Shown: positions 6,579 through 34,782 of the stretch, in pieces
Position numbering within the stretch: the first letter of the stretch is position 1
Layout: each line of letters begins with the position of its first letter
Program-made: the position numbers and the translations under genes
NCBI GenBank assembly: GCA_051294905.1
Contig: CM119371.1
Coordinates: 15,688,001 to 15,752,000 of the forward strand
DNA length: 64,000 nt
From: Botryllus schlosseri
Taxonomy: Eukaryota
Direction: 5' to 3'
The notes under the pieces: model-generated
Databases searched by the model: none
The model's input: the letters and a program-made list of their open reading frames with translations, nothing else
Told to the model about the DNA's origin: nothing

Positions 6579-6771
6579 CCACTGCCATTATTATAGTAAT
6601 ACCATCGTTGATGAGCACCCCCTGCAGTTTTCCAATGCAGGTTAATCTATCAATGTTATTCATTTTGACAATCAACACCCCCTAATTCAATACCTGTTTA
6701 TCTATAATCATGTTTACTTTCAAAACAGGACTAGTCTCTATTATTGTATCCTTGACGGGTGATCAGTTATC

Positions 6772-13756: not shown

Positions 13757-15420
13757 TCAATTTGAAATCTTGATATACTTGGCATACGACGCGCAGCACG
13801 CCTCCATGACGCCAGCACTTCGTTTGGTAGGTTGCGCCTCATTCGCGGGGATTTCAAGCTCGCGTAGTTCAACAGTTTTAACGTCAGTGCCCAACACGCC
13901 GCCGAATATGTACAGTTTGTCGGAAAGGTGGACTTTGACATGTCGGCATTGTATCTCTAAATTGTTCAAAATCTGCCATTGCCTCGTCTGTTCTTTTAGG
14001 AATTCGACTGTACACGTGACGCCTCCGAGAGCGTACAGAAATTCCTTGTACCAAATGGCTGCCCCGTACGCCCTCCCCTTGATCATCGATGGAGATTGCG
14101 AATACTCCTTTTTTTGGAGTATCAATCTTGAAACAGAAGTGCTTTCGTCTGCATCGGTGTATCCTTCCCGTCCGCCCAACACATATACTGACTTTTTATC
14201 GCTAGCAACAAAAAATCCATCTGAAAGTCGCATATCCTCGTAATCCACCCTGTGCCCACCAGCAGAGGCTATATCAAACATCTTAGTTGACCGAATGGAG
14301 ACCATTATCACCCACTTTCCGGTGCAAATAATCTTATTGTACTGTGACTTATCGCGGCCATCGTATTCTTCGTCGCTTTCGTCTTCGTCGTCGCTACCGT
14401 TGTCTTCCCCCATTGTCATTACACATCTCCATTCTGTCCCGTTGAAGGCGTGCAAAGAAACACTGTCGCCAACGTAAAGTATTCCGTGATATTCCACAGC
14501 CTGACAATGCCGGCCAACAGTTGATGGCAGTTCACCGGCTTTTTCCCACGTCCCATTGCACAAGTCGTATTGGTAAAGCACTTTCGTAGCTGTATTAATC
14601 GACGTGATGTGACTCATCGGCGGGATCCTATTCTCAGCGGGAGGTAGCGTGCCTGCGAAGCAATTGCGGATATGTTGCAGGCATTTCAGCGAGCCGTCAA
14701 TCAGATTCACTGTATAAATTCGCTTTTTAACGATTTCTCGCGGAATGCGTTGTAAATCGATCTTTAGAAATAGATCGTGAAATTGGTTTTTTCTTTCTTC
14801 GACATTCGCGTTCGTCCACACCACCAGCCCGGCCCATTTTATGAGCTCGGACGATCGAAACGAACCACTCATCAAATCGAAACAATAATCCATCATCTCG
14901 TAATCCAGCAAGTTGATACGGGTAGACTTTACGAGCGCATATAGATTAGCACCAAGAAATGTCAAATCGGCCCATTTAAAGCATCCTTGTTATAGAGACG
15001 AGACAAGTTGATCACTTCCGCGAACGTTGTCAGATCGATGTTTTCGGCCAGGAATTCGACGCATAGTTCGGATAGTTTCGGCATCTGCAGCATTTCCGCA
15101 GCATCAAGCAGGCCTCTCGCTAATATCTTGGAGATCCCCACAGACCCCAAATAAATGAAGTGGACGCATTGGCTCAAAACCTCGGGAGTCATTGCCGAAG
15201 AGAAGTCTATAATTCCGGTGTTGGCTTCGTACGTGTCATTGGAGAACATCCCCCTAAAATATTCCGTGCATGCGGCCAAAACGCATTTATGCGCCATAAC
15301 TTTGACGTGTCCGCATGTAATGGTGACGTCGCAAAACTCCCCATTTGCTTTTAATTGCGACAACAGATTGCTTTGGTGCGGTTCCGATTTTTTGTAAACG
15401 ATCGTCATCTCAGATTCCAT
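13757..15420 (-). pseudogene. Second, divergent intronless Kelch-like (BTB-BACK-Kelch) gene with one frameshift
   Basis: ORF 14962-15420 has the BTB (FCDVTITCG...AHKCVLAACTEYFRGMF). Overlapping ORF 13757-14965 has BACK and Kelch motifs (VYVLGGR, LYALGG, LYIFGG). Total span 1664 nt = 3n+2, implying a 1-nt loss near 14965. Confidence 0.85.
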
Positions 15421-15425
15421 AATCT

Positions 15426-15546
15426 ATTTACATCCGCCGGCAAGCGTTTGAACCGCGTGTTTCGGATATCGGTCAGGAACATATGGCGGTCACAATGCCG
15501 TTGTATGAGAATAAAGAGGAATCTATATAGTGAATGAGTTCTTTAA
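15426..15546 (+). repeat. ~120-bp diverged direct repeat (second copy 37067-37188) of the region just upstream of the 15420 Kelch gene
   Basis: ATTTACATCCG...TTTGAACCGCGT...TATCGGTCAGGAACATATGGCGG...GAGAATAAAG...GAGTTCTTTAA occurs at both sites with scattered substitutions. Confidence 0.85.
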
Positions 15547-15984
15547 TGCCCGTATTATGAAAAATTTGATAGCACGAGAATTACGTAGTACTCGTATTAA
15601 AACGCGATTTAGGACTGACGGAGGTTGGCATTACAAAAATAATCTTAGTCGGCGCCTATCAAATACTCGTTTCAGCTTTAGAACCGGGGAATCGCGTCAG
15701 AAAGGTGAGTAATACCTACGGTACCGGTTCGGCACGCTAGCTTATGGTTACTCGAGCTGCTCATTTTTCTAGTTCTGGACAACAATGGTCGGTCACACCT
15801 GGCTCGCCTACAAAACAGAAGAGAAGCATTTGTCATTTTCCGATTATTTCAGTCAGACTGATACACGCAATGTTATCGAATATGGATTCTGAGAAGAGGG
15901 GAGAAAAGGAGCGAACTATTCAGAATATGAAAAGGAATTATTGGTCAATTTGGTGGCCAGGACACCGAAGTAGTTATATAGATC

Positions 15985-16447
15985 GCTCGTGATTCGCCAT
16001 TGTTTCTTATGGGCCCGCTGGTGAGGTGCCGCGAAACTCGTATTGGTGATGGCACCCTTTTGACCCCCCCTTCCGCTGGTGAGGTGCCATGTGTTCTTAT
16101 GGGATCTCTGGTGATGGCACCCTTTCCGGTATAGGCTTCGTCGGTGATGTGCCGTGAAAACTCGTGTTGGTGATGGCACCCTTTCAGACCCCCTATCGCT
16201 CGTGATGTGCCATTGTTTCTTACCAGATCTCTGGTGATGTGTCATTGGTTATTCGCCATGTGTTCTTATGGGTGCGGTCGTGATTCGCCTTTTCGGGTAT
16301 AGGGCGTGGTCGTGATTCACCGTGAAAACTCGGGGTCGTGACTCACCCTCTTTGCTATAGGCGGTGGCGGCGATTCGCCTGTCGTGTATTCTTACGGGTT
16401 CTGTGGTGATTCACCATGTGTTCTTATGGGCGCGGTCGTGATTCGTA
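15985..16447 (+). repeat. Subterminal array of ~16 GTGA-nnn-GCC/ACC motifs (mirror at ~33127-33589)
   Basis: CGTGATTCGCC, GGTGAGGTGCC, GGTGATGGCAC and GGTGATGTGCC variants mostly ~25-33 bp apart, with a higher-order period of ~123 bp (16020 vs 16143). Confidence 0.85.
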
Positions 16448-17914
16448 CTTTCAGGTATCTCTCGCGTGGTGTTGAATATGTACGAGTCGCCAACAATAAC
16501 CGCACAAACGGAAACGTGGCTTGTTGTGAGGATTTACGCAGTGCGTGCGACAGACGGCGATTCGAATATCAACAATAGTCGCGTTCGCAAACTAACACTT
16601 CAAAAAGATGTGAAATATTTGTAAAATCCTACGATCGCTCACAAGATACCACTTCCGGCAAATCGATCTATCACTCAATACACAACCGAAGTTGAATTGT
16701 AATTGAATGCGTAAATTTATCACCTCGACATCAAAATTCGAAAACAACAACTTGACGCTTTATGTTCTCACTCTAATTTCATGATAAGTGTAATAAGTGC
16801 CGAATAACAGATACATCACCGGCGAGACTTGAATACCAACAAATTGTCACTTATTTCTATTCTAGCCGTAATCCTTTGTGAAGTTAAAGTTCAAAAAGGT
16901 GTGAAATAGTTTGCAAAACCCCGCGATCACTGACAAGATAATGTCTCAGACATACCCATCTTTCACGACTTGGTGTCATAGCCATACCGATCGCTCACGC
17001 GGTGAAATTTTAGTAATCAGTTTGTCACAGAACTAGATTTCACTGGTAAGATTTAATAAATACCGACTATCAGAACCATCAGTGTGGGTAACTTGAATAG
17101 CAACAAATTGTCACTTATTTCCGACGGGAAATTCACTAAACCGCAGTACATTGTGTGATTTTGAAAAACAGATGTTTGCGCTTGCGTTTTGATATGTGCG
17201 ACCCACTAACTACATCCGTTTTGCGAACACGGCTTGTTGTGAGGATTACGCGCGCGCCCTATATTTCGAATGACCTGCGCGCTGAAGTGCGAAATAGTTT
17301 GCTAAATCTAGTAATCAGTCGCAAGGTGTTACTTTAGAAATTAGTTTACCATAGAACCGGCGTAGTCGGTGATTCGAATACCGACAAATTTTCACTTATT
17401 TCTGACCCAACCCTAATCCTCTGTGAAGTTGACGCTTATTCAAAAAGGTGTGAAATAATTGTAAAATCCTAACCCGAAACCGATTATTTTGACTTTGGCG
17501 TAGTGTGCATTGAAATAGGATTGACAAACATGACTAGCAACTTCCCCACAGTCCCGTTTCGATATTATACACACATTGATTTGAAACAAGTAATGTAACA
17601 TTACAACTCTATTCCCGATCCAGCTTTCCGTTTGTCAAAGAGACATTTTAACATCTTACCATACTCAAAAGAATTATTCACAACATTAACAAGTGTTTAA
17701 AATCTAGTTTTCACTTACTTGGCTATATCAGTACAACTCACAAACTTGAATTAATTCATCTGGTTGTATTCATAGGACCGATAATTTTTATCCAACTGTA
17801 AAGGTCGTTATACTATTCTGTAAGACAGAGTATTTATTAAGCGGTGCATATACGATTTGACTTGGGCATATTATATTTTGAGTATACGAGATTTGAGTGT
17901 CAGAACAATAACTG

Positions 17915-17993
17915 AGAATTAAATTATCACAATTGAATCCATATACGACAGCGTGAATTAAATTATCACAATTGAATCCATATACGACAGCGT
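17915..17993 (+). repeat. 39-bp tandem duplication in the arm (mirror ~31581-31659)
   Basis: GAATTAAATTATCACAATTGAATCCATATACGACAGCGT x2. Confidence 0.9.
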
Positions 17994-20900
17994 AAAAGAT
18001 ATTGGGATGTCAGCATCTCTTTACGGTTATAGTTACAACCACATTACCTAATTTACCCGACCAACTCGTCATGATCATTCCCGAAATCAACACAAACATG
18101 ACTACTGACTTGAGTCAACCACAAAACAGCATCAAGTTTTAAATCCACTTGTAGCTTACGACTTATTTGAATGCGGGTTATGTTTTGTTGTAATTGAGTG
18201 TACGGAAATAGTATTACGTCTCGACATCTCACCATCTTACCATACTCAAAGAGTCAACCACGAAAACATTGTCAAGTAAATCCGTTTGTAACTTACCCAA
18301 CCAACTCAAACAGTATCAGTATGAAAAACAGCCAAACATACACGAATCCATACAATCACTAAAACCTAAAATCCATAACAAGCTTGGTTGTATTCATATC
18401 CCTACACATCTTTTTTTATTCAGCTTGAAAAGTCGTTACTATTCTGTAAGATAGAGGAATTACTACGCGGTATATTCTGCAAGACAAACTAATTACTACT
18501 CGGTATATTTTGTAAGACAAAAGTAATTACTTCTCAGTGTCGGCGACTTGAGATTAACATAATATGTTTGAGTATACGAGATTTGAAAGTCCGACCAACG
18601 TAGTTGAGAATTCATTTCTTACAATCGAACAATGGTGTTATATTCAAAGTTATCATGCTGTGGACATAAGATTGACACATTGATTTGACATATGAGATTT
18701 GTAATAGTTGATCATTACTTTATTATTAAATTATTTGCGTTAATTAGACCCGGCGTTATGGTAAATGTTATGACAGCAACAAACTTTTCAGTACCAATGT
18801 TATTAAAACATTAAGCTGTAAAACTATGTATGTCTGAAATGTTCTTGATAGGAAAATTACTCCACCTTGGTAAAAATCACTCTGCGTATTACGGATATCA
18901 GAAAATATTTCCAGTACCCAAGACTAAAGATGAAACGACAATTTCGTTTGCTGATTAACAACCGGTACAATACTTTATCATCATAATCCGCGGTGAGAAT
19001 TGAAACACTTTCGCGCATTACCCGGTGTCAAGATATCACACTAGGTGAATTGACATACCGCCGCTTGAATAATACCTAATCCGTTCGCACCATTTCACAT
19101 ACTTTGATCATTACAAAAGTAAATTGTGATATGTTTGTTAGATGCATTCAATTCAACTAGAAGTGTCTGGTACACAACAATCGTAATATCGAAAAAGTAC
19201 TTGCCACACTGTTATTTGCTAAACGTGTTTTGCATTGTTGTTCATTTGTAGTATTGATTGTTTTTGAACCCCCAAATCATAATTCCCGACATGAAACCAA
19301 GCCGCTGAAAGTCGTTACCATCACGAAGATACAATGTGCACGATGTTTGTCAAATGTGTCCTACCTGGCCAACAGAAAACAATTTTCACTCACTCGAAAT
19401 GAAACCAATGTGATGGTCTCCATTCGATATTTTGTTTGTGTCAAATATACTTTGCAATGAACACATTTGCGTGGTTGAGCTTTGCCATCATCAAGCTGTC
19501 ATTTGTATCGTTTAATTAACCGACATTTAGCGATTGGTGAACATACCGAACGATACACAGTCACTTCGAAATACTCCGTTGATCGTAATTTCCATCATCA
19601 TAATAATCGAAGTACAATTGCTTCGAATCGCTAGAGTGGTTGAGCTTTACATCATCAGACTGCCATCTGTACATCAAGAAGACATCCGCCTTGTAACTGG
19701 GTCGTTTACCTAACCGAGTTTTATGCACAGTTTGATATTTAGCGATTGCAGAACATACCATTTCGAAATACTGCGTTGATCTCAATTCCTTTGTCGTGAT
19801 AATCGAAGTATATTTGTTTCGATTTCATAAAAACCAACTTTTCTATGACATGATAAATTTTTGAAAAGTTATACTTAGAAGGTTGGTGCATATCGCGAAA
19901 AATAATATACCACCCATATTGATATTGCTACTCCATTGATCGGTATTTTCACGCGAGTCGATTTTCAAATGAGTAAAATTTATTACATGAGTTTCTCCGC
20001 TTAATGTAAATGAAAACTCAGTCGTCTTTTAACATCACAAAGACATTGATAAAAAGTAAGCAATCAAACACAACACTTTGTACGACACTAGTTATTGTTC
20101 CACACATCTCATTTCATACTAAGTGTATACGAAAGATATTCATGATGCACGAAAATATTCGCTCATGCTACAAACCCGTAGAATGATTGGTGGTGCAAGG
20201 CCAGCACAATTGTGGTATCCATCCGAGTTTAGTTAACACAAATTTATTACAACAGAGCCACGTAAACTTTCGTGAAAGAAAAGCATACTCACTTTCAGAG
20301 GGTTATGTCAATGCCATAGCAGTAAATCAAAAATATTCCTAACCCTTTGCACACCGGTGACAAATCATACAACAAACATTTTTTGTGAGTCGAATTGTTG
20401 TTCAGTGTCAAGTCTACCTGTTGAAAAGTGCATTAAAACAACACAGTCACAATTCAATTAAAACCACGAATCTATTTTCATTTCGTCACATACAGAAAAA
20501 TAAATTTTCTTTCCCCAACACATACTTGTAACCAATCGCTTTCATTAAACACACAACTCCATAAAAGTATTTACTTTCTACAACATAGACATTCCGATGT
20601 AGTCAAGAAATATTAAAACGGACACGACACGACTGAATGTAAGGGGATAGAAGTCTATCGCATCGATTTACATGTGGTCTTCGCTACGGTTTCAAAAAAC
20701 GAATCATCTATTTTGCATTGGTCGAGACCGAGCGAGTCAGTTACATGTATTCGCGGTAATGATTTTTCTTGTCATATGCGAATGATAGGTTTGCTACTCC
20801 GACAAATCAAATCAACAAACAACAACAATCTTCTGACGATCATAATAGCAATTTCATTTGCCACCCCTTCGTAATTGTACACGCACGAAAAGTATATTGT

Positions 20901-20999
20901 ACAACTCGGCAACTACGTTTAACAAGACCAATCACACTACCAGCGTTGAACGCAAGATACCTACCCAAGTCAAAAATATCATACGGGTTTGGACAACTG

Positions 21000-21575
21000 A
21001 CGTTTACCTGTGTAAAATTATCATTTTCACTTGGCGATCTATCCTTTCCTAGAGTAACAAACCCTTGTCGTTTACAAATCTATTTTTTTTTCCTACAACA
21101 AAAAACTATTTTCACTTGGAAAAATACTTTTACCTAGAGTAACTAATCATTTTCTTTTAAAAATATGTTTTCTCCCTGGGTAACAAACCCTTTTCGTTTG
21201 GAAAACTATCATTTACCTGAGTACCAATACCGTTTTCACTTGGCAGTCCGTCGTTTACCTGGCTAAACATATCATTTTCACTTGGAAATCTATTTTTTCC
21301 CAGAGTAAGAAACCTTTTTCACTTTGAAATCTATTTTTTCCCTGGGTAACAAACCTTTTTCACTTGGAAATATATTTTTCCCCAGGTAACAAACCTTTTT
21401 CGCTTGGAAATATATTTTTCCCTGGGTTACAAACCTTTTTCACTTGGTGGTCCGTCATTTACCTGGATAAAAATATCATTTTCCTTTGGGGGATCTGGCG
21501 TTTACCCAGTGTAACAATACATTTTCTCTTGGTCATCTAGCTTTTCCTAGAGTAACAAAACCATTTTCGTTTTGA
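21000..21575 (+). repeat. ~40-bp minisatellite in the arm (mirror ~23968-24543)
   Basis: Unit like CACTTGGAAATATATTTTTCCCAGGTAACAAACCTTTTT (21361-21400, 21401-21440) plus degenerate neighbours. Confidence 0.9.
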
Positions 21576-24500
21576 AAAGTGACAACTACATCGGTCAATT
21601 TGATATTTTTTGTATATTGTTACAACGGATAGCGACAAAATATACACCAACAACAACTCCAATACATTTGTGTAATCGCATATTCACTTGTGCTGATGCA
21701 GCCCATCAAAACCCTCAGTTACCCACATGTAATGCGCTGTATATCGAAATGCATGTTTTGGAAAATTGGACAATAGGCATCGATAGTTCTGTGATGTCCG
21801 GGTTCGTGCTTTGGATTTTCCAGAGTCAAAATGTCTGAATAAAACACCTCCTCGACGACGGTTGGTATGTGGATAACGGGGTTCGGAAGACGGTTGGATT
21901 TATGTCACCCATCGCGATAACAATTCCAGGTCGAGTTTTCCCCCCGCATGTTTACTATATTGTGTCTTTATTGGTCAATGTATGTCTCGACATTCAGATT
22001 GAAATCGGAAATGATAAAGTATGTAACCGGATCCGGATATCAACTCTGAATCGATAAACCAATGAATAATATTCAAAGTAAACATGTTACATTCCACGAA
22101 AAAATACCATCCAGACATACGTCGCGCTTGTTTGCCCACAACAGTATACGCGTAAATGGAGGTGTGTGACATTGCATGCAATGTGTTGGTATACAAACAT
22201 CGGGGAGTAATCCTTCGATCCACAGACATTATCATAGCCGGTAATTTTGATGCAGATCGAATGTCACCCGATAACAATACCAATAAGCCACATTGCAATG
22301 ACTCTGAGTCCGCACTATTACATCGATATTTCGACACCGTTCACTGATTTATTCGATGGTGTTATCGTGTTGTAACATTACAAGATAGTCATGATCCTAT
22401 CTGTAGACGGACCACCCAGATCAATTGGATACATCGGTCAATATCCATCGTGTTGTCGACACCGAAGTTTTCTGCTGAGACTACAGCGTTTGATCTAGGT
22501 GAACTATCGAAGTACGGTGCTCGAAATGATTGCAATCAGTCTTTCAGTCACGATCAATGGATGTCGCTACTCCCACATAACGACTCCGGATAAATATCGT
22601 GCAAATGTCGGACTGATATTGTGATCCAATAAGGTATGTTTCTGTGGAATGAAGACTGCAATCGTACACCACAATAGAACACTACCTCGTGATTTCACAC
22701 GCAATCATAAAACACACTTTCGTAAGGGTCTAGCTCGTCCGGTGACATTTCGAAACGGTCGTCACCACAAGAGATCGGGGTTGGTCTCGTCATATCGGAG
22801 CATTTTGAAACGACATCGTCACAAGTCTATTGACGTCGATTCAGTTGGTCATGTCAATCCGTTTCACAATCCACCGTTTTTCAACTCCCCGCACCATAGT
22901 GTTACGACACAGACAAGAAGCGTCGGTGGAAATAATAAAACACGGAAAGCACACTTTGGTGTTATTTGACATGGATTTTACACCCGACGAACCTCACATT
23001 CGAGCGATGCATTGGAATGACGCTTGTATTATTGATGTAGAAGGAACAGAAATGTATCGATTTATTGGTTTCGTACGTATCCAACAAAAATCTGGGTATA
23101 TGATTGTGCATGGTTCGCATATTTGACTGTGAACGCTCTATTGGTATATGCTGTATAGTTCACTTTCACCGTCGTGCGAATAACCCATGTTACGGTTCGG
23201 TGTTTGTGTGTCTGTATGTCACGCTTCAGATTGACTCAGAGTCATTGCAATGTGGCTTATTGGTATTGTTATCGGGTGACATTCGATCTGCATCAAAATT
23301 ACCGGCTATGATAATGTCTGTGGATCGAAGGATTACTCCCCGATGTTTGTATACCAACACATTGCATGCAATGTCACACACCTCCATTTACGCGTATACT
23401 GTTGTGGGCAAACAAGCGCGACGTATGTCTGGATGGTATTTTTTCGTGGAATGTAACATGTTTACTTTGAATATTGTTCATTGGTTTATCGATTCAGAGT
23501 TGATATCCGGATCCGGTTACATACTTTATCATTTCCGATTTTAATCTGAATGTCGAGACATACATTGACCAATAAAGACACAATATAGTAAACATGCGGG
23601 GGGAAAACTCGACCTGGAATTGTTATCGCGATGGGTGACATAAATCCAACCGTCTTCCGAACCCCGTTATCCACATACCAACCGTCGTCGAGGAGGTGTT
23701 TTATTCAGACATTTTGACTCTGGAAAATCCAAAGCACGAACCCGGACATCACAGAACTATCGATGCCTATTGTCCAATTTTCCAAAACATGCATTTCGAT
23801 ATACAGCGCATTACATGTGGGTAACTGAGGGTTTTGATGGGCTGCATCAGCACAAGTGAATATGCGATTACACAAATGTATTGGAGTTGTTGTTGGTGTA
23901 TATTTTGTCGCTATCCGTTGTAACAATATACAAAAAATATCAAATTGACCGATGTAGTTGTCACTTTTCAAAACGAAAATGGTTTTGTTACTCTAGGAAA
24001 AGCTAGATGACCAAGAGAAAATGTATTGTTACACTGGGTAAACGCCAGATCCCCCAAAGGAAAATGATATTTTTATCCAGGTAAATGACGGACCACCAAG
24101 TGAAAAAGGTTTGTAACCCAGGGAAAAATATATTTCCAAGCGAAAAAGGTTTGTTACCTGGGGAAAAATATATTTCCAAGTGAAAAAGGTTTGTTACCCA
24201 GGGAAAAAATAGATTTCAAAGTGAAAAAGGTTTCTTACTCTGGGAAAAAATAGATTTCCAAGTGAAAATGATATGTTTAGCCAGGTAAACGACGGACTGC
24301 CAAGTGAAAACGGTATTGGTACTCAGGTAAATGATAGTTTTCCAAACGAAAAGGGTTTGTTACCCAGGGAGAAAACATATTTTTAAAAGAAAATGATTAG
24401 TTACTCTAGGTAAAAGTATTTTTCCAAGTGAAAATAGTTTTTTGTTGTAGGAAAAAAAAATAGATTTGTAAACGACAAGGGTTTGTTACTCTAGGAAAGG

Positions 24501-25055
24501 ATAGATCGCCAAGTGAAAATGATAATTTTACACAGGTAAACGTCAGTTGTCCAAACCCGTATGATATTTTTGACTTGGGTAGGTATCTTGCGTTCAACGC
24601 TGGTAGTGTGATTGGTCTTGTTAAACGTAGTTGCCGAGTTGTACAATATACTTTTCGTGCGTGTACAATTACGAAGGGGTGGCAAATGAAATTGCTATTA
24701 TGATCGTCAGAAGATTGTTGTTGTTTGTTGATTTGATTTGTCGGAGTAGCAAACCTATCATTCGCATATGACAAGAAAAATCATTACCGCGAATACATGT
24801 AACTGACTCGCTCGGTCTCGACCAATGCAAAATAGATGATTCGTTTTTTGAAACCGTAGCGAAGACCACATGTAAATCGATGCGATAGACTTCTATCCCC
24901 TTACATTCAGTCGTGTCGTGTCCGTTTTAATATTTCTTGACTACATCGGAATGTCTATGTTGTAGAAAGTAAATACTTTTATGGAGTTGTGTGTTTAATG
25001 AAAGCGATTGGTTACAAGTATGTGTTGGGGAAAGAAAATTTATTTTTCTGTATGT

Positions 25056-25384
25056 TGCAGCAATTAGAGCTTATTGTCTCTGATGATCTGTATAAAAGTA
25101 CAGCTAACCAATCGTCTTGGTGCTCGGCTATACAATACTTATCTCGAGAAGCTGTTGCCTTGGGTGAAGTTCTTCGTACCAGATATATGCTCAATACAAT
25201 GGTTTATTCGACGTTGATGCAGTAGTAGCGTATAGAGTCTCAATCATAATAAAGGTAATCTCTAACACGTGTTACCTACACTTATATAGAAGTCTCGACT
25301 CTCTAGTAATCACAACGAGAAGTAGTTTCTTATTCGAGACATAGTGAAATATCATGGGCGAGTGATCACAGCGTTATCACTGCA
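25056..25384 (-). repeat. 3' LTR
   Basis: Identical to 28754-29082; TG...CA ends. Confidence 0.92.
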
Positions 25385-26083
25385 TTATCTCTACTTGAAA
25401 AGGGAATTAATTAGGAATAATTAAGGGAAAAGCCAATTAGATTATACGACCATGAATGACAAAATCGATTTACTATGTCGAATACAAGTTTTGGTACAGA
25501 AAGGTCACCCCGTCCCCATTAAAAAAAAAGAGATCGGTTAGTAACAATTACGAGTAAAGACTTAATTTCAACGACCATTTAGTAATCACATGAAATGTTG
25601 TCAACAACTACAATGAATTAGGCCTATACAGTTTCAGTTTTAGTATGAGTATTGCAAGAGCAAGGTTTTATACTGCTTTTCTAATATACAAGTTATCCTA
25701 ATTGGAATAACACAAAGCAATTTAATCCTAAGCAAAAAGTAAGCCTAATCAAATACAAATTCATCCACGTGACAGCCCAAATCATCATGAGTGGTACCGC
25801 CGCTGTTCACGTGAAGGCAGAATTCACTTCGGTTCGTGGCCGGTATATATACAAGAGTGGCCAGTTCAAACATTGCAATATCTCGATCGATATTGTACGC
25901 GTAACTTCAGTTTCGGGCCGTGGCCCATATGCACCAGTGTGTTCCTGGTCAGTGAAATCCGTACAAAATCTCGATCGATAATGTACATGTGTTTCCGGCG
26001 TACAACTTGCTACTCAACTCGTGTGTGCCTGCACTGTTGTGCACGTGCAGGTTCCTGTGGGGTCTGGCATCGTCTGCGATTCA

Positions 26084-26666
26084 TCATTGTCTGATTGACA
26101 CAGACTTCAGCGTATATATAGCGTATATATAGCTCACGCTGTGCGGGGTTGAAGATACGACGTGGCTACGTACGCGTGTTGGCGCTAAAGTGCCGGCCAA
26201 TGATTGCAGAGGTGGGATATCTTCGGGCGATCGGTCGCGGTATATCGATGTCGTTTCGTCGGTGGAATAGCGGCGAACTGTTGCTGTCAATTGTTGCAGT
26301 GCGACCGCACGTGGTTTCAGAATCGTCCCGAAGTATATTGCCAGGTCGTTGTTGAATTGGTCGAAAGCGTTTTGATGACTTTGCACATATGAGTAGAGCA
26401 TGGTACGCCGGAACGCGGAAGTGTGGACGACGGACACGTATATTTTCATCAATTCTGTAAAAACCTCACGACAGCATGACGAAGAAAGGGAATATACTAG
26501 CACGATTATAACTAGCACAAAATATCAATACATGCATGAAATAAAACACAAAGCCTATCAATAAGCAACCAGTCAGAGAAGGCACCGAATTTAGCAAGGT
26601 GTCAACAATATCAGAAACAATTAAAGAAATAATAAGGCACGCTGTTCCTACAGCGATGCAAGGCAA
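26084..26666 (-). pseudogene. Decayed membrane-protein ORF inside the LTR element (env-like position)
   Basis: Overlapping ORFs 26466-26666 and 26084-26518 join by a frameshift into a hydrophobic stretch (LLIGFVFYFMHVLIF/LVIIVLVYSL) followed by CC. Confidence 0.3.
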
Positions 26667-27229
26667 GAGTTACTCACCGTGACTTCAATCACTGGAAGCT
26701 ACGAATAAAAATGCGGGAAGCCGTGCTAAAAATTTGCACGTGGTGAGGGAAATTTAGAAAAAAATAACAGGAAGTCTGCCAGCAACTAGACGGCGCTTAG
26801 GGGTGACGGGAAAAGTCCGCGTAATCTAAAACAAATGAAGGATTTATTAGAAATGTAAGTGAGTAATTACAATATCTGTCAAACTCACATTGATCATGGC
26901 AAGATGTTATCATATACAGAGGAGTGAGAGGGCTGTTATGCGTCTGTAAATATATGAAAGCTGAAAGGCCTATGAAATCCCTTTTTGAAATGCCGTCATA
27001 CTACCATTACTCAATGTGGAGTTACGAATGGGTTCTTTGAATGAAAGATGCGTCATTATGGACGATCGGTAAAAGTACAATATTCGGGCAAATTAGCATA
27101 ATTCCGGTTAGATAATAATGGTGGAACCGAATGATGATTTCAGGCGATTATATGCTGAACAAGAAATTTGTATTGCAAAATTACACTTCCTTGCTAAAGC
27201 GTTACGAAATTTAAGAAACCGTTGTGTTT

Positions 27230-28505
27230 AGAATCAGCGGAACATGCACGTGCACGTGGCGATATAATCGAAAGCTGAAAACCACATAGCGTTTTGTGAT
27301 AAGGTTTCCGTTAACGCATCAAAAATAAATTTCCGAACTAGAGTATTTCGTAATATTCACGGTCCGTTATCTATGAATCCAAACCAATGTACGCTGTTCA
27401 GTTATTATTCGACTGAACAAGATATGACATATTAAATAGCGAATTTTATAATAGGTCTAGTGCTGAGATAAGAACATCACGGCCGTAATGTTAATAATAT
27501 TTAAAGTCACCGATAACACCTTAACTTAGCGGAGGCCATTAAGCTATGAAGGTTGATAAAAATGCGTTGTAGGCATAAAGGATGCCGCTCGACATTACAT
27601 TCAATGGATATAAATCCGACACGAGACTGCGGTACTGGTCAAAGGTTCTATCGTATAGACACAGGAATGATCGCAAAGAGGCCCGCCTTAGCCCCGGTCC
27701 GTTCAATCTGCAGGTTTGTTCGGACCAGGAAGCGTTATGCTCTGAACTTCTTCATCCCGCCTCTACACGCACCCGGGTCGAACGAATGCCAGCCCCCGAT
27801 TTCTCGCATCTCAATTCAATATACAATGAGAGTTGCCGTGTAATTGCATAAATCGGTGATATTTTCTCAGTAAATGTGGGACATAATTCCATTCTTAGCG
27901 TATGGTAATCCCATAAGATATAGTGCTTAACGAATTCAACGATTGTGGGATAAGTTAATTTGATCTGTGCACAAGATAAATCCCATATTAACGAATTCAA
28001 GCAAAAGATACCAAGACCTAATTCACATTCGACCATATCTTAGCGTAATATTTTGGTGGGAAATCATAGATTAGTGACACAGGTAACGCGTATTGAATGT
28101 AATGCGCTTCATTTTGTCAACAACCAAAGTCATTTGCCTTTGCGCGTCAGTCATATATTGTCTCAGAATTGCTGAGCTATCATTTACTGACGGCGCGACA
28201 CAATTTTGAACGGGAAGGCGATTAGATTCTTGCGGTTCGACGATAGTCGAATTTTTCGCAATGTGCGCTGATAGCCCCGGCTGTCCGGAGAAAATGGCGT
28301 CGTTATTTTGACCAATTTTAGCAATTAGATTAATTTTTGCTTCGCCTAAATACGTAGGCTCGTTTATAGCAAAGCTGATAGGAAAAGCGTGCCCAATTCT
28401 TTCATCGGCAATACCGAGTAAAGCAACTTCGTGCTTAACATCTTTAGCGTGACCGATTTCAGAGTCTAGTACCATCTCAGCTGGTTGCATAGTTTTACTC
28501 GCCAT
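27230..28505 (-). pseudogene. Decayed first ORF of the LTR element, probably gag-like (3' end approximate)
   Basis: First long ATG ORF after the PBS. Fragments WDYHTLRMELCPTF...RQLSL and FDQYRSLVSDLYP...AYNAFLSTF resemble retrotransposon capsid helices. Several stops and frameshifts. Confidence 0.45.
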
Positions 28506-28753
28506 TTAGACACTTTAGTGAACACTTGTCTATGACAAATATCGAATATGTTACGACAAAACAACAATAACACTTCAAAAATCACTAACACATACACAAT
28601 TTAATAGGGTCAGCTGTCATGATCGTTTTCAACAGAAATTGACAATTAAAAACGTGTACCGTGTTCGTCCGTGAAGAATGTCCTTGTCGTCGATAGCAAA
28701 AACGTCAGTCTCAGTATTGAAGTTGTATACCCGAACGACTTTCTCAGGGCCCA

Positions 28754-29082
28754 TGCAGCAATTAGAGCTTATTGTCTCTGATGATCTGTATAAAAGTACA
28801 GCTAACCAATCGTCTTGGTGCTCGGCTATACAATACTTATCTCGAGAAGCTGTTGCCTTGGGTGAAGTTCTTCGTACCAGATATATGCTCAATACAATGG
28901 TTTATTCGACGTTGATGCAGTAGTAGCGTATAGAGTCTCAATCATAATAAAGGTAATCTCTAACACGTGTTACCTACACTTATATAGAAGTCTCGACTCT
29001 CTAGTAATCACAACGAGAAGTAGTTTCTTATTCGAGACATAGTGAAATATCATGGGCGAGTGATCACAGCGTTATCACTGCA
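28754..29082 (-). repeat. 5' LTR
   Basis: Identical to 25056-25384; adjacent TGGGCCCTGAG on the minus strand. Confidence 0.92.
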
Positions 29083-32000
29083 ATGTGACGAAATGAAAAT
29101 AGATTCGTGGTTTTAATTGAATTGTGACTGTGTTGTTTTAATGCACTTTTCAACAGGTAGACTTGACACTGAACAACAATTCGACTCACAAAAAATGTTT
29201 GTTGTATGATTTGTCACCGGTGTGCAAAGGGTTAGGAATATTTTTGATTTACTGCTATGGCATTGACATAACCCTCTGAAAGTGAGTATGCTTTTCTTTC
29301 ACGAAAGTTTACGTGGCTCTGTTGTAATAAATTTGTGTTAACTAAACTCGGATGGATACCACAATTGTGCTGGCCTTGCACCACCAATCATTCTACGGGT
29401 TTGTAGCATGAGCGACTATTTTCGTGCATCATGAATATCTTTCGTATACACTTAGTATGAAATGAGATGTGTGGAACAATAACTAGTGTCGTACAAAGTG
29501 TTGTGTTTGATTGCTTACTTTTTATCAATGTCTTTGTGATGTTAAAAGACGACTGAGTTTTCATTTACATTAAGCGGAGAAACTCATGTAATAAATTTTA
29601 CTCATTTGAAAATCGACTCGCGTGAAAATACCGATCAATGGAGTAGCAATATCAATATGGGTGGTATATTATTTTTCGCGATATGCACCAACCTTCTAAG
29701 TATAACTTTTCAAAAATTTATCATGTCATAGAAAAGTTGGTTTTTATGAAATCGAAACAAATATACTTCGATTATCACGACAAAGGAATTGAGATCAACG
29801 CAGTATTTCGAAATGGTATGTTCTGCAATCGCTAAATATCAAACTGTGCATAAAACTCGGTTAGGTAAACGACCCAGTTACAAGGCGGATGTCTTCTTGA
29901 TGTACAGATGGCAGTCTGATGATGTAAAGCTCAACCACTCTAGCGATTCGAAGCAATTGTACTTCGATTATTATGATGATGGAAATTACGATCAACGGAG
30001 TATTTCGAAGTGACTGTGTATCGTTCGGTATGTTCACCAATCGCTAAATGTCGGTTAATTAAACGATACAAATGACAGCTTGATGATGGCAAAGCTCAAC
30101 CACGCAAATGTGTTCATTGCAAAGTATATTTGACACAAACAAAATATCGAATGGAGACCATCACATTGGTTTCATTTCGAGTGAGTGAAAATTGTTTTCT
30201 GTTGGCCAGGTAGGACACATTTGACAAACATCGTGCACATTGTATCTTCGTGATGGTAACGACTTTCAGCGGCTTGGTTTCATGTCGGGAATTATGATTT
30301 GGGGGTTCAAAAACAATCAATACTACAAATGAACAACAATGCAAAACACGTTTAGCAAATAACAGTGTGGCAAGTACTTTTTCGATATTACGATTGTTGT
30401 GTACCAGACACTTCTAGTTGAATTGAATGCATCTAACAAACATATCACAATTTACTTTTGTAATGATCAAAGTATGTGAAATGGTGCGAACGGATTAGGT
30501 ATTATTCAAGCGGCGGTATGTCAATTCACCTAGTGTGATATCTTGACACCGGGTAATGCGCGAAAGTGTTTCAATTCTCACCGCGGATTATGATGATAAA
30601 GTATTGTACCGGTTGTTAATCAGCAAACGAAATTGTCGTTTCATCTTTAGTCTTGGGTACTGGAAATATTTTCTGATATCCGTAATACGCAGAGTGATTT
30701 TTACCAAGGTGGAGTAATTTTCCTATCAAGAACATTTCAGACATACATAGTTTTACAGCTTAATGTTTTAATAACATTGGTACTGAAAAGTTTGTTGCTG
30801 TCATAACATTTACCATAACGCCGGGTCTAATTAACGCAAATAATTTAATAATAAAGTAATGATCAACTATTACAAATCTCATATGTCAAATCAATGTGTC
30901 AATCTTATGTCCACAGCATGATAACTTTGAATATAACACCATTGTTCGATTGTAAGAAATGAATTCTCAACTACGTTGGTCGGACTTTCAAATCTCGTAT
31001 ACTCAAACATATTATGTTAATCTCAAGTCGCCGACACTGAGAAGTAATTACTTTTGTCTTACAAAATATACCGAGTAGTAATTAGTTTGTCTTGCAGAAT
31101 ATACCGCGTAGTAATTCCTCTATCTTACAGAATAGTAACGACTTTTCAAGCTGAATAAAAAAAGATGTGTAGGGATATGAATACAACCAAGCTTGTTATG
31201 GATTTTAGGTTTTAGTGATTGTATGGATTCGTGTATGTTTGGCTGTTTTTCATACTGATACTGTTTGAGTTGGTTGGGTAAGTTACAAACGGATTTACTT
31301 GACAATGTTTTCGTGGTTGACTCTTTGAGTATGGTAAGATGGTGAGATGTCGAGACGTAATACTATTTCCGTACACTCAATTACAACAAAACATAACCCG
31401 CATTCAAATAAGTCGTAAGCTACAAGTGGATTTAAAACTTGATGCTGTTTTGTGGTTGACTCAAGTCAGTAGTCATGTTTGTGTTGATTTCGGGAATGAT
31501 CATGACGAGTTGGTCGGGTAAATTAGGTAATGTGGTTGTAACTATAACCGTAAAGAGATGCTGACATCCCAATATCTTTTACGCTGTCGTATATGGATTC
31601 AATTGTGATAATTTAATTCACGCTGTCGTATATGGATTCAATTGTGATAATTTAATTCTCAGTTATTGTTCTGACACTCAAATCTCGTATACTCAAAATA
31701 TAATATGCCCAAGTCAAATCGTATATGCACCGCTTAATAAATACTCTGTCTTACAGAATAGTATAACGACCTTTACAGTTGGATAAAAATTATCGGTCCT
31801 ATGAATACAACCAGATGAATTAATTCAAGTTTGTGAGTTGTACTGATATAGCCAAGTAAGTGAAAACTAGATTTTAAACACTTGTTAATGTTGTGAATAA
31901 TTCTTTTGAGTATGGTAAGATGTTAAAATGTCTCTTTGACAAACGGAAAGCTGGATCGGGAATAGAGTTGTAATGTTACATTACTTGTTTCAAATCAATG

Positions 32001-34782
32001 TGTGTATAATATCGAAACGGGACTGTGGGGAAGTTGCTAGTCATGTTTGTCAATCCTATTTCAATGCACACTACGCCAAAGTCAAAATAATCGGTTTCGG
32101 GTTAGGATTTTACAATTATTTCACACCTTTTTGAATAAGCGTCAACTTCACAGAGGATTAGGGTTGGGTCAGAAATAAGTGAAAATTTGTCGGTATTCGA
32201 ATCACCGACTACGCCGGTTCTATGGTAAACTAATTTCTAAAGTAACACCTTGCGACTGATTACTAGATTTAGCAAACTATTTCGCACTTCAGCGCGCAGG
32301 TCATTCGAAATATAGGGCGCGCGCGTAATCCTCACAACAAGCCGTGTTCGCAAAACGGATGTAGTTAGTGGGTCGCACATATCAAAACGCAAGCGCAAAC
32401 ATCTGTTTTTCAAAATCACACAATGTACTGCGGTTTAGTGAATTTCCCGTCGGAAATAAGTGACAATTTGTTGCTATTCAAGTTACCCACACTGATGGTT
32501 CTGATAGTCGGTATTTATTAAATCTTACCAGTGAAATCTAGTTCTGTGACAAACTGATTACTAAAATTTCACCGCGTGAGCGATCGGTATGGCTATGACA
32601 CCAAGTCGTGAAAGATGGGTATGTCTGAGACATTATCTTGTCAGTGATCGCGGGGTTTTGCAAACTATTTCACACCTTTTTGAACTTTAACTTCACAAAG
32701 GATTACGGCTAGAATAGAAATAAGTGACAATTTGTTGGTATTCAAGTCTCGCCGGTGATGTATCTGTTATTCGGCACTTATTACACTTATCATGAAATTA
32801 GAGTGAGAACATAAAGCGTCAAGTTGTTGTTTTCGAATTTTGATGTCGAGGTGATAAATTTACGCATTCAATTACAATTCAACTTCGGTTGTGTATTGAG
32901 TGATAGATCGATTTGCCGGAAGTGGTATCTTGTGAGCGATCGTAGGATTTTACAAATATTTCACATCTTTTTGAAGTGTTAGTTTGCGAACGCGACTATT
33001 GTTGATATTCGAATCGCCGTCTGTCGCACGCACTGCGTAAATCCTCACAACAAGCCACGTTTCCGTTTGTGCGGTTATTGTTGGCGACTCGTACATATTC
33101 AACACCACGCGAGAGATACCTGAAAGTACGAATCACGACCGCGCCCATAAGAACACATGGTGAATCACCACAGAACCCGTAAGAATACACGACAGGCGAA
33201 TCGCCGCCACCGCCTATAGCAAAGAGGGTGAGTCACGACCCCGAGTTTTCACGGTGAATCACGACCACGCCCTATACCCGAAAAGGCGAATCACGACCGC
33301 ACCCATAAGAACACATGGCGAATAACCAATGACACATCACCAGAGATCTGGTAAGAAACAATGGCACATCACGAGCGATAGGGGGTCTGAAAGGGTGCCA
33401 TCACCAACACGAGTTTTCACGGCACATCACCGACGAAGCCTATACCGGAAAGGGTGCCATCACCAGAGATCCCATAAGAACACATGGCACCTCACCAGCG
33501 GAAGGGGGGGTCAAAAGGGTGCCATCACCAATACGAGTTTCGCGGCACCTCACCAGCGGGCCCATAAGAAACAATGGCGAATCACGAGCGATCTATATAA
33601 CTACTCACCGATTTTGTTGGATAAATCGACCGCTCGATCCATATGCAATGTCAAGGAGTCAGCTTGGAAACAAATTCAAATGGACTTCAATATTGATAGA
33701 AATACAAGAAATGTCAGTGATTGGACGAAGCTCCGAGCTCTATACAAAAACCTTAAGGCAAAGGCGGCCAAACAAATGACGGATATCAATAAAGAAAATT
33801 TCAAGACTGGAGGTGGGCCGTTCAAGGATCACGATTTATCTCCAATTTCAAATAAGGTTTGTAAGCCAACTTCCTTTCGGTGTGAAGCGGTTCTTTCTGA
33901 AAATTGCTAGTCTAGTTTCTCGTTTTGAATAGTGCGATTCCATTTCCAGCTGCTTGCAATGGAGCTCGCTCAATTCAATCCAACATTACCAGACTCTGAG
34001 TTGGACACAGACACAGAAAGAGCTTCTTTTCCTCAGTTTGGTGGGTTCATTGCAAGTACAGAAAAAGGTTGGTAATCAGAAGCTCAGCTGAACAGTCCTT
34101 TCAGCGTTAGATACTATTCGTGTACCGAATCACAATAGTTTACTATAGTTCGTATGCACTCCAGCAGAGATGCGAGCACTCGTGAGTTTGAGCATATGCA
34201 ATTATGCATGCGAAGATTCGAGTGATGCAGTAATCTTGAGAGAACATTTACAAAAACTTGGTACTAAAGTGATAACATGCACATGCCAATTGCATATATA
34301 TATGTGTCCGAATACACAGATATGCCTGCTTGCATCTCTGTGAGTCTGTGTAATGCATAGAAAATGGATATATAGCATATAGGGGTCCATAGTCTACTTT
34401 CTTATTCACTCACCCTTATCATCAACAATCAGGGCTCCCCATAAACATGTCAAAATTTATGGCTTTGTAATTGATTCAGTGTTAGTTGACCGTTTAAGCA
34501 TTTGTTACCCTAACGCATCATTTATCTGTTCATCTCATGGAAAATACATTATACATGTGTCACCAAGTATCATCTCATGGAAAGTACATGTGTCACCAAG
34601 TATGTCTTGTTTGATTTCAGATGAATTGATCACACTGACAGCTGAGGTGTTGTCTCCGTCGAGCACAGCACCTGCTGACGACTCGCTACTATCTACTGAG
34701 TCGAGCAGACATCCCATCTCTTCGAAATCATTAAGAATGTATGCCACTACTCCGGAGAAACAAGCTTCTCACAAGATACCAG

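Follow-up and report, generated by a model that had tools for sequence, protein, structure and literature searches.

We describe a 17,637-bp insertion in the genome of Botryllus schlosseri. Most probably it belongs to a fold-back family of about a thousand non-autonomous copies that derive from a Polinton/Maverick and are mobilised in trans. It lies in a window of 64,000 nt (GCA_051294905.1, contig CM119371.1, positions 15,688,001-15,752,000 of the forward strand), and all coordinates below refer to this window. Polintons/Mavericks are regarded as viruses that also act as transposons; their replication cycle has been modelled only, and to our knowledge their non-autonomous relatives have hardly been described.

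The element runs from AGTAGT at position 15969 to ACTACT at 33605 and is flanked by two unstranded copies of the target-site duplication (TSD) CACCGA (15963-15968 and 33606-33611). Its left arm (15969-22310, plus strand, 6,342 bp) is mirrored on the minus strand by a right arm that lies in two parts, an inner one at 23233-25055 and an outer one at 29087-33605 that terminates in ACTACT. These parts sum to 6,342 bp, equal to the left arm, from which they differ at three positions (20158, 22001 and 22067 in left-arm coordinates). A unique, unstranded turn-around spacer of 922 bp separates the arms (22311-23232). The right arm is split by a non-coding LTR element that inserted later (4,027 bp, 25056-29082, plus strand) and is flanked by a 4-bp TSD, ATGT (25052-25055 and 29083-29086). 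Its 329-bp LTRs (25056-25384 and 28754-29082, TG..CA) agree at all 329 positions; its longest reading frame does not exceed 146 aa, and three of its frames had no match in Pfam. With the LTR element subtracted, the fold-back measures 13,610 bp, 93% of it self-complementary.

The terminal region (15969-16600, plus strand) consists of degenerate units of roughly 41-45 bp with GGTGA..GCC / TTCTTATGG cores (repeat families D6, D9 and D13) and opens with AGTAGT-N6-GATCGSTC, which is common to clade-D Polintons (12 termini aligned); presumably integrase and replication proteins recognise it as their cis signal. Further inside, the left arm carries a tandem array of units of about 41 bp (20980-21545, plus strand; families D1, D2, D4 and D5), with a period of 41 and 8.3 copies at 21109-21447, and its mirror image lies at about 23980-24560. 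The insertion interrupts a host Myb/SANT-like frame on the plus strand, which breaks off at the TSD (15893-15968) and resumes at 33612-33907: once the element and one CACCGA are removed, it reads as 124 continuous amino acids, and from the insertion site onwards its downstream part fits the Pfam profile Myb_DNA-bind_5 (positions 20-77, E 2.2e-5). This anatomy, from the ends, TSD, arms and spacer to the rejoining of the host frame, had been described in a first-pass annotation of the same DNA, and we recovered all of it upon recomputation.

The first-pass annotation took the element for a snap-back derivative and proposed a search with the element's end for further copies with different TSDs. 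Genome-wide, the 20-nt terminal motif gave 1,148 and 1,138 matches, greatly in excess of chance (0 and 3 for the reversed control), and the 133-nt terminal pattern 787 and 779, and the terminal 632 bp of the window copy found paired matches on many contigs. From these matches we put the family at about a thousand copies, which amount to roughly 3% of the 495-Mb genome. The window copy is thus no locus-specific accident but a member of this family. All 16 elements inspected have AGTAGT...ACTACT ends, and 15 of the 16 have perfect 6-bp TSDs, all of different sequence; in the remaining, old copy (C25) the duplication agrees at five of six positions. Inverted arms of 6.1-6.7 kb are present in 9/9 full-size copies read end to end, and four more copies are inverted across the entire 1.9-2.3 kb examined (99.6-99.96% identity), so that near-identical inverted arms occur in 13/13 full-size copies examined. 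Arms are 99.63-100% identical within a copy, compared to 81-99% between copies, with 0-24 arm-to-arm substitutions per copy.

The spacer junction of the window copy recurs in copies C16, C5a and C8. A subfamily (C7, C12a and C5b) has a spacer and inner arm unrelated in sequence to those of the window copy; we considered independent fold-back events as the source of its shifting arm/spacer boundaries and rejected them, as C7 equals C12a minus 226 bp. The fold-back architecture appears to be ancestral and to have been kept through 15-19% sequence divergence. Two short derivatives, one of 3.3 kb with 375-bp terminal inverted repeats (TIRs) and one of 6.6 kb comprising one arm, also have perfect TSDs, so that the fold-back may not be needed for integration unless the deletions came after insertion.

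The assembler has trouble with these palindromes: at two loci (C14 and C2a) a 100-N gap lies between arm-spacer-arm blocks that are 100% duplicated, which counts in favour of the mirror structure being an assembly fold-back artefact absent from the organism's DNA. Against this stand the recurrence of the structure at 13 separate loci, the real substitutions between arms, the LTR element with its own TSD in one arm of the window copy, a LINE within the spacer of C8, the 6% arm divergence of the old copy and the perfect TSDs. A precise empty site in an independent sample completes this evidence: in run X5, from a different sample and study, two contigs hold a single copy of CACCGA, and their left flank runs through position 15968 directly into 30 letters, of which 28 match window positions 33612-33641 (compared by eye). 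For the family, the artefact is already refuted, and we give it practically no probability. Instead, the data support an insertion that is real and recent and, because the window insertion is missing from another individual's DNA, a family that has moved recently; they speak against the copies being ancient, fixed in every individual and no longer mobile.

The window copy has no detectable coding capacity of its own, which supports its being non-autonomous. Across its arms and spacer, none of the 71 frames of at least 45 aa reached a Pfam E value below 0.01 (best E 0.028), tblastn of the 11 proteins of a gene-bearing Polinton on contig 11, its three polymerase pieces included, had no match in the window, and an Rfam search of 15500-34100 returned no family. 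We found no capsid protein, packaging ATPase or adenain-like protease in the window copy by Pfam and tblastn, and no rve integrase either there or in the other fold-back copies examined, as the first-pass annotation had stated for polymerase and integrase. In seven fold-back copies no frame exceeds 155 aa, barring an inserted LINE. The latter accounts for a 998-aa frame in the C8 spacer, which we considered as a transposase and rejected on account of its endonuclease and reverse-transcriptase motifs (identified by eye). It is very unlikely that the window copy is autonomous by virtue of an unrecognised, perhaps intron-split transposase in its arms or spacer: no origin has been assigned to the inner 5 kb of the arms or to the spacer, and six-frame searches do miss short exons, yet the absence of longer frames in the seven copies, the Pfam and Rfam results and the replacement of the inner arm and spacer in C7, C12a and C5b, which a required gene would not tolerate, all count against it.

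Proteins that could act in trans are abundant in the same genome. The contig-11 Polinton encodes an A32-type ATPase, an integrase with rve and chromo domains and a polymerase in three pieces with a DTDS motif (motifs identified by eye), whose nearest Atlas cluster is 94% PF03175. Of 770 integrase candidates, 144 matches were scored, most with open frames of 339-359 aa, and about 76 of those scored fall in a 47-49% clade; for the polymerase, at least 78 matches were scored, and the open frames of many run to about 1,290-1,310 aa. Many apparently intact Polintons reside in this genome. A whole-genome search with Pfam PF03175 returned nothing, a false negative given the at least 78 polymerase genes found by protein searches, and one with PF00770 likewise returned nothing, though the protease gene was found by other searches. 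Neither the polymerase piece nor the protease received a name from Pfam (E up to 1) or PDB sequence searches. The nearest Atlas clusters of the protease contain Peptidase_C5 (23-28% of members), and its AlphaFold model, built from a 2-sequence alignment, has a mean pLDDT of 47, too poor for a fold search.

It is to one group of these elements, clade D, that the fold-back family connects. At 13 of 18 clade-D polymerase matches, integrase and protease follow downstream on the same strand, and the Polinton capsid gene stops 8-12 bp short of the protease. Eight AGTAGT-bounded pairs of 15.1-29.5 kb each enclose a clade-D integrase, and below 23.7 Mb on contig 1 such pairs enclose three of four clade-D integrases compared to none of five from other clades. 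The 133-nt terminal pattern is present at both ends of three integrase-bearing clade-D Polintons, and one clade-D terminus agrees with that of a 13.4-kb fold-back copy at about 72 of 80 letters (counted by eye); homology between the two groups is seen in DNA over the terminal 80-133 nt and, at the level of protein, in the protease. Their sub-terminal repeats also have a common architecture over at least 133 nt. Next to the contig-11 Polinton lies an AGTAGT..GATCG match without the GATCGSTC part, which is due to chance. For the autonomous partner with polymerase and integrase that the first-pass annotation proposed to look for, clade-D Polintons with shared termini are candidates. The annotation's assignment of the insertion to a Polinton-type element is likewise borne out by the 6-bp TSDs and by these ends, in place of non-Polinton termini with another TSD length, the case it had named as refuting.

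We therefore consider it exceedingly improbable that the family is a classical long-TIR foldback transposon of the Drosophila FB/Mutator-like or Galileo/P-like type whose resemblance to Polinton ends is due to chance. FB elements have TSDs of 9 bp and Galileo/P elements of 7-8 bp, whereas 15 of our 16 copies have TSDs of 6 bp and the other agrees at five of six positions; at least 133 nt of the ends are common to integrase- and polymerase-bearing Polintons, and sister copies hold a Polinton protease. What speaks for a classical foldback is the general build, as long, internally repetitive inverted arms with little or no coding sequence are a hallmark of such elements (PMC3573991 and PMC3169594).

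The protease also points to the origin of the arms. At the right end of a copy of about 14.5 kb (L030), an open protease frame of 191 aa lies 688 bp from the terminus, flanked on both sides by segments homologous to the window arm, and the opposite arm of this copy holds the same frame inverted and 100% identical. Seven further inverted pairs have protease frames open in both arms, and among pairs of protease pseudogenes the same stops occur in both arms in six of eight. In these sister copies, which of the capsid, packaging ATPase and protease genes retain just the protease, that gene faces outward in both arms, at a distance from the terminus like that in clade-D Polintons, where the single proteases, 87-94% identical (amino acids), are 592-890 bp away from one end. 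In the window copy the body of the protease is deleted: a remnant of 26 leader residues, upstream of where sister copies keep the gene, matches residues 8-33 of the L030 frame at 16894-16971 (minus strand, tblastn E 2e-6) and is mirrored at 32603-32680 (plus strand).

The fold-back arms hence both carry the protease end and neither carries the polymerase end. Because sister copies carry an intact clade-D protease in both arms, the outer 1.2 kb or so of the ancestral arm probably derives from the protease end of a clade-D Polinton; it is the sole part recognisable as Polinton, the inner 5 kb or so and the spacer not being so. For the latter two, we detected no similarity to the contig-11 Polinton proteins; fold-back halves compared by blastn and tblastx with the contig-11 Polinton, which belongs to a different clade, showed none either, and L030 has no capsid gene upstream of its protease. 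Given an inner arm unlike this Polinton and the lack of a capsid gene in L030, what we observe is not the snap-back of a complete Polinton end. The snap-back derivation put forward in the first-pass annotation thus holds for the outer 1.2 kb, which duplicates the protease end, and finds no counterpart in the inner 5 kb and the spacer. The mirror structure may go back to one event and have been inherited since: a Polinton derivative would have undergone inverted duplication of its protease end, through snap-back or template switching.

How the arms have stayed alike can be followed from their substitutions. In three trios of copies, mirrored sites, at which the arms agree and the copies differ, outnumber single-arm sites by 87 to 24, 149 to 4 and 1,082 to 18, the second being the window copy's own trio. 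In C25, the arms are 93.9% identical. We infer that homogenisation is tied to propagation and not to in-place gene conversion, an argument based on this one old copy. From the anatomy, we further infer mobilisation in trans, replication by a helper, a single-stranded hairpin stage and packaging. A retroviral-type integrase from the many clade-D copies with open frames would recognise the shared ends and integrate the element. A single-stranded stage during propagation, for which the helper's protein-primed polymerase might be responsible through displacement synthesis, would keep both arms identical: the strand would fold back on itself as a hairpin of 6.3 kb whose loop measures 0.9 kb, the blunt end of this hairpin would restore the duplex origin, and its mismatches would be repaired. 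Length may be constrained as well. Within the first 23.7 Mb of contig 1, 21 of 39 terminus pairs span 12-15.5 kb and four are shorter, and a length held at 13-14 kb, compared to 15-15.7 kb for the shortest clade-D Polintons, suggests a size requirement, for instance encapsidation by the helper. Such helper-dependent replication and packaging, together with interference, would constitute defective-interfering behaviour.

Two life cycles can be envisaged for such a fold-back derivative. In the first, which we put forward tentatively, it would be a chromosomally inherited defective-interfering hyperparasite, combining the snap-back hairpin with the helper's polymerase, capsids and integrase and competing with that helper. 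Each copy would give rise to a single strand, by excision or by copying, with the 6.3-kb hairpin accounting for the mirrored substitutions; the helper's protein-primed polymerase would replicate it from the regenerated blunt end; packaging in helper capsids would explain a length of about 87-90% of the helper's; and hairpin RNA that targets the shared termini and the protease might silence the helper.

In the second, possible though doubtful, the same family would use the helper's integrase in plain cut-and-paste movement of double-stranded DNA, with neither helper polymerase nor capsid, its arms kept alike by intrachromatid gene conversion as in large sex-chromosome palindromes and its copy number growing by gap repair and S-phase transposition. 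Integrase alone suffices for the TSDs and shared ends, TSDs also flank the short derivatives and gene conversion yields mirrored substitutions. However, a gene-less element moving in this way is expected to shrink, and on contig 1 just four pairs are shorter than the main size class; in-place conversion is not obviously efficient when the arms of C25 have drifted to 93.9% identity and the window copy has its LTR insertion in one arm only; and helpers number roughly a hundred but the family about a thousand, which suggests efficient copying. In one RNA run, 18 reads fitted a 2-kb stretch and the element's terminal 0.8 kb drew almost none, a count that says nothing about DNA intermediates, and no RNA run was listed as containing the queried sequence.

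The TIRs of Polintons end in 5'-AG...CT-3', and the fold-back family shares this type of end with them, along with 6-bp TSDs, homologous termini and the protease. It differs in having no polymerase, integrase, ATPase or capsid gene, in exceeding the gene-bearing elements about tenfold in copy number and in inverted repeats of 6.1-6.7 kb that make up 93% of the element and are mostly sequence not recognisable as Polinton. Inverted repeats of 100-1,500 bp are given for Polintons in 10.1101/2023.08.22.554363, and a lizard Polinton has repeats of 584 bp in a survey that describes non-autonomous copies as apparently absent (PMC3014272). In butterfly Polintons, TIRs of about 2 kb hold the hexon and adenain genes (bioRxiv 10.1101/2025.02.07.637071), and there, as in our family, the protease can sit inside the inverted repeat and hence occur twice.

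As with snap-back or copy-back defective viral genomes (defined as in PMC13506859), one parental end is mirrored (the outer 1.2 kb or so), genes are lost and terminal cis signals kept, the size is close to but below that of the parent, and the element presumably depends on a helper. Unlike those genomes, it is integrated and heritable, in about a thousand chromosomal copies whose subfamilies span 15-19% divergence, and most of its arm is not recognisably parental. Incomplete particles of adenovirus reportedly contain long inverted duplications of one genome end. With Drosophila FB, Galileo and nematode Tm1, as described in PMC3573991 and PMC3169594, the family has in common a short middle enclosed by very long, internally repetitive inverted arms, a greater similarity of the arms within a copy than between copies, and copies that are mostly non-coding. 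It is set apart from them by the 6-bp TSD, the Polinton ends and protease, and arms several times longer than in examples of those elements. Like MITEs, it comprises gene-less copies that share only their ends with an autonomous element they outnumber, whereas MITEs shrink to a few hundred bp and the fold-back is held at 13-14 kb and is almost wholly palindromic. Our literature searches turned up no gene-less Polinton derivative of fold-back type or of high copy number; an unpublished entry in a Repbase/Dfam library may still exist.

A gene-less derivative has here outgrown its presumed helpers about tenfold, filling about 3% of the genome and retaining near-helper length and perfectly mirrored arms. 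This leads to testable predictions on single-stranded and hairpin intermediates, on which Polinton end carries the cis signals for replication and packaging, and on capsid size limits. If the hyperparasite life cycle were true, the family would offer the first natural read-out of the self-synthesising, panhandle-type Polinton replication that has never been demonstrated. Hairpin formation, rearrangement and double-stranded RNA are likely to be concentrated at the thousand long palindromes, and as a repeat class these break assemblies, as at the two gap-containing loci. For annotation, the family can be recognised by AGTAGT-N6-GATCGSTC, a 6-bp TSD and a 13-14-kb palindrome.

The fold-back element occupies 15969-33605 of the window, opens with AGTAGT, closes with ACTACT and is flanked on both sides by CACCGA, as a first-pass annotation made from the sequence alone had stated. 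A script comparison reproduced its arms of 6,342 bp each, with 3 mismatched positions, around a 922-bp spacer (22311-23232). Only one of the two arms hosts a further insertion, a young, non-autonomous LTR retroelement of 4,027 bp (25056-29082) with identical 329-bp LTRs (TG..CA) and a 4-bp target-site duplication (TSD; ATGT). This retroelement is non-coding, having no reading frame longer than 146 aa. When the fold-back element and one CACCGA copy are removed by script, a 124-aa host frame is regained, as the annotation had proposed for a Myb/SANT gene; its downstream part, beginning at the insertion site, aligns with a Pfam domain of Myb/SANT type, whose profile it covers from position 20 onward. 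The reported absence of polymerase and integrase holds as well, with none of the 71 frames of at least 45 aa in arm and spacer reaching a Pfam E value < 0.01 (best 0.028) and no Rfam family matching the element. Around the insertion, intron-poor BTB-BACK-Kelch reading frames (6763-8421, 13757-14989 and 54160-55788) form a local gene family cluster.

The insertion is polymorphic. We compared window positions 14800-16800 with contigs from three DNA-type sequencing runs and with the reads of an RNA run. Two contigs of run X5, from another sample and study, cross the left flank to 15968 and continue for 30 letters, 28 of which agree with window 33612-33641 (by eye); they are a precise empty site with a single CACCGA, the unoccupied allele that the annotation had envisaged. 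One contig of run X2 also departs from the reference at 15968, with 36 letters beyond. Summed contig depth, which is not a copy number, was 10^2-10^3 in the flank and 10^4-3x10^5 within the element. In the host flank (14800-15968), contigs of X1, X2 and X5 depart from the window sequence at many fixed single-base positions; the assembled haplotype differs from these samples.

The element belongs to a fold-back family that is real, abundant and recently mobile. Paired genome matches to its first 632 bp lie on many contigs, mostly spaced 13-14 kb apart, and TSDs are perfect 6-bp repeats in 15 of 16 elements, every one different, in agreement with the predicted existence of further copies. Six other copies were retrieved whole, together with three longer ones. 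Counting that in the window, nine copies are complete, and each has inverted arms of 6.1-6.7 kb and a spacer of 0.8-1.0 kb, the exception in spacer size being C8, enlarged by a LINE; four additional copies are inverted at 99.6-99.96% identity across the whole 1.9-2.3 kb compared. The fold-back is hence a family trait and not a local snap-back accident, and the annotation has to be corrected on this point. The LINE in C8 (L039+L040, element positions 7674-10667) has a 998-aa open frame with endonuclease and reverse-transcriptase motifs recognized by eye.

The terminal motif AGTAGT-N6-GATCGSTC occurs 1,148 + 1,138 times in the genome (reversed control, 0 + 3), and a 133-nt pattern combining it with two sub-terminal cores occurs 787 + 779 times (control, 0 + 0). 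Contig 1 has 39 terminus pairs in its first 23.7 Mb, of which 21 span 12-15.5 kb, 4 are shorter and 14 longer, the last including nested copies, insertion-bearing copies and gene-bearing elements. Assuming a thousand copies of ~13.5 kb, we estimate that the family makes up near 3% of the 495.5-Mb genome. Three terminus pairs of 41.8, 28.7 and 14.7 kb are nested in each other at G000:C1:16768420-16810257, and family elements appear to insert into one another. Two short relatives with perfect 6-bp TSDs, one of 3.3 kb with 375-bp terminal inverted repeats (TIRs; L053, G000:C1:19317105-19320606) and one of 6.6 kb with a single arm and 878-bp TIRs (L054, G000:C1:21592362-21599184), have either been shortened by internal deletion or preserve an ancestral, unfolded layout. 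At two loci, C14 (G000:C14:15384400-15408400, L043-L045) and C2a (G000:C2:28391300-28414200, L050-L052), a 100-N gap separates 100%-identical direct duplications of arm-spacer-arm, of 9.5 kb and 7.2 kb, respectively. The palindrome has probably led to scaffolding errors here, an indication of assembler difficulty with such palindromes and not of their invention.

Arms within a copy are 99.63-100% identical, whereas copies diverge from one another by 1-19%. In three trios of copies, sites at which both arms agree in every copy while the copies differ numbered 87, 149 and 1,082, against 24, 4 and 18 single-arm differences. The copies are also mosaic, with segment identity between one pair ranging from 70% to 98%, and the group formed by C7, C12a and C5b has an inner arm end and a spacer of sequence unrelated to the window's group. 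Near-identical arms within diverged, mosaic copies argue that the mirror architecture is ancestral and was maintained during sequence turnover.

A whole-genome Pfam search for Polinton polymerase gave no match and proved a false negative that missed all Polinton clades. A packaging-ATPase match pointed to an ORF-dense Polinton on contig 11 (L055+L056, G000:C11:4508001-4524000), whose ends were not found within the 16 kb examined. It encodes an A32-type ATPase, an integrase with rve and chromodomain, a weak double-jelly-roll match and a polymerase split over three frames, with motifs recognizable by eye and a nearest Atlas cluster that is 94% PF03175. At its edges, a BIR (IAP-type) frame (L055:783-1223, minus strand) and a caspase-domain frame (L056:6794-7564, plus strand) may be cargo or neighbouring host genes. 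As queries, its integrase gave 144 scored matches of 770 candidates, most with open 339-359-aa frames and falling into four identity classes; its polymerase at least 78 scored matches, many with open frames of ~1,290-1,310 aa; and its capsid at least 97. Four or more clades of Polinton are present in the genome, and in each of them many copies keep polymerase, integrase and capsid frames open. The capsid matches formed one class more, a fifth (36% identity, frames of 504 aa), which had no corresponding integrase class among the matches listed.

Clade D, a different clade from the contig-11 element, is the most divergent class (47-49% identity to that element for integrase, 37-38% for polymerase and 34-35% for capsid), and it shares its ends and TSD length with the fold-back family. 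Three of the four clade-D integrases located below 23.7 Mb on contig 1 are enclosed by AGTAGT-bounded pairs (17.3-20.9 kb), compared with none of the five integrases from other classes; five additional pairs enclose a clade-D integrase, the three shortest measuring 15,055, 15,407 and 15,727 bp. Integrase and protease lie downstream on the same strand for 13 of 18 clade-D polymerase matches, and the capsid gene ends 8-12 bp ahead of the protease. Both ends of three integrase-bearing pairs match the 133-nt pattern, and over the terminal 80 letters one such pair agrees with a 13.4-kb fold-back copy at ~72 of 80 positions (by eye). Clade D is the likely autonomous partner with polymerase and integrase postulated in the first-pass annotation, the interpretation of which is largely upheld.

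With the contig-11 proteins as tblastn queries, the collected loci gave a single match, a protease at L030, the right end of a ~14.5-kb fold-back copy on contig 4. Its open 191-aa frame faces outward, 688 bp from the terminus, flanked by homologues of window-arm positions 1-576 (97% over 283-576) and 823-1503. A genome search with this frame found it twice in its own element, inverted and 100% identical. It also returned seven more inverted pairs, spaced 11-13 kb, in which the frame is open on both arms, and eight pairs interrupted by stop codons, the stops being the same on the two arms in six of them. Clade-D Polintons have single matches (87-94% identity), outward-facing and 592-890 bp from one end. 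The protease may belong to the adenovirus-protease family, a lead taken from its nearest Atlas clusters, where 23-28% of members carry that assignment; Pfam, PDB and a low-confidence structure model did not confirm this identity. In the window copy, only a remnant persists, in both arms: a 26-residue stretch of the leader that lay upstream of the protease. Given the outward protease in both arms and its clade-D counterparts near one end, the ancestral arm started with a clade-D Polinton terminus followed by that Polinton's protease. Polinton homology of the arm ends where the protease starts; beyond that point the Polinton carries its capsid gene and the fold-back a different sequence. Demonstrable Polinton sequence is confined to the arm tips, a second point on which the annotation has to be corrected. 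At G000:C1:38197352-38210707, proteases of two types, a fold-back one with leader (minus strand) and a Polinton one (plus strand), are 13 kb apart and have a clade-D integrase match between them (C1:38205684); this may be a fold-back/Polinton chimera or two adjacent elements.

We infer that the clade-D integrase inserts fold-back elements in trans, and that a single inverted duplication, affecting the protease end of a Polinton derivative, gave rise to the mirror form. The arms would be made equal again at each propagation, most simply when a displaced single strand folds into a hairpin by snap-back, which the panhandle model of protein-primed replicons would predict. The main rival keeps the helper integrase and replaces replication and packaging with cut-and-paste and gene conversion in place; against efficient conversion in place stands one copy, C25, old and broken, with arms 93.9% identical, large insertions and a TSD matching at 5 of 6 positions. 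Length is suggestive only: clean fold-back copies measure 13.2-14.0 kb (n = 6) against 15.1-15.7 kb for the shortest helpers, the 4 shorter pairs being a minority, as a length requirement such as packaging might produce. The defective-interfering nature proposed in the annotation would imply a putative interference with the helper; snap-back defective genomes are defined in PMC13506859.

Polintons are described in 10.1101/2023.08.22.554363 as 13-25 kb long, with TIRs of 100-1,500 bp and TSDs of 5-8 bp, encoding polymerase, integrase, protease, ATPase and capsid proteins. Because it is gene-less, the window element is not an autonomous Polinton; its characters place it among the non-autonomous members of the superfamily. 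In a lizard Polinton the TSD is 6 bp and the TIR 584 bp long; the survey describing it recorded no non-autonomous copies (PMC3014272). In the literature searched, there was no account of a gene-less Polinton derivative that folds back and reaches high copy number. The nearest structural precedent is that of butterfly Polintons, whose ~2-kb TIRs hold hexon and adenain genes (10.1101/2025.02.07.637071).
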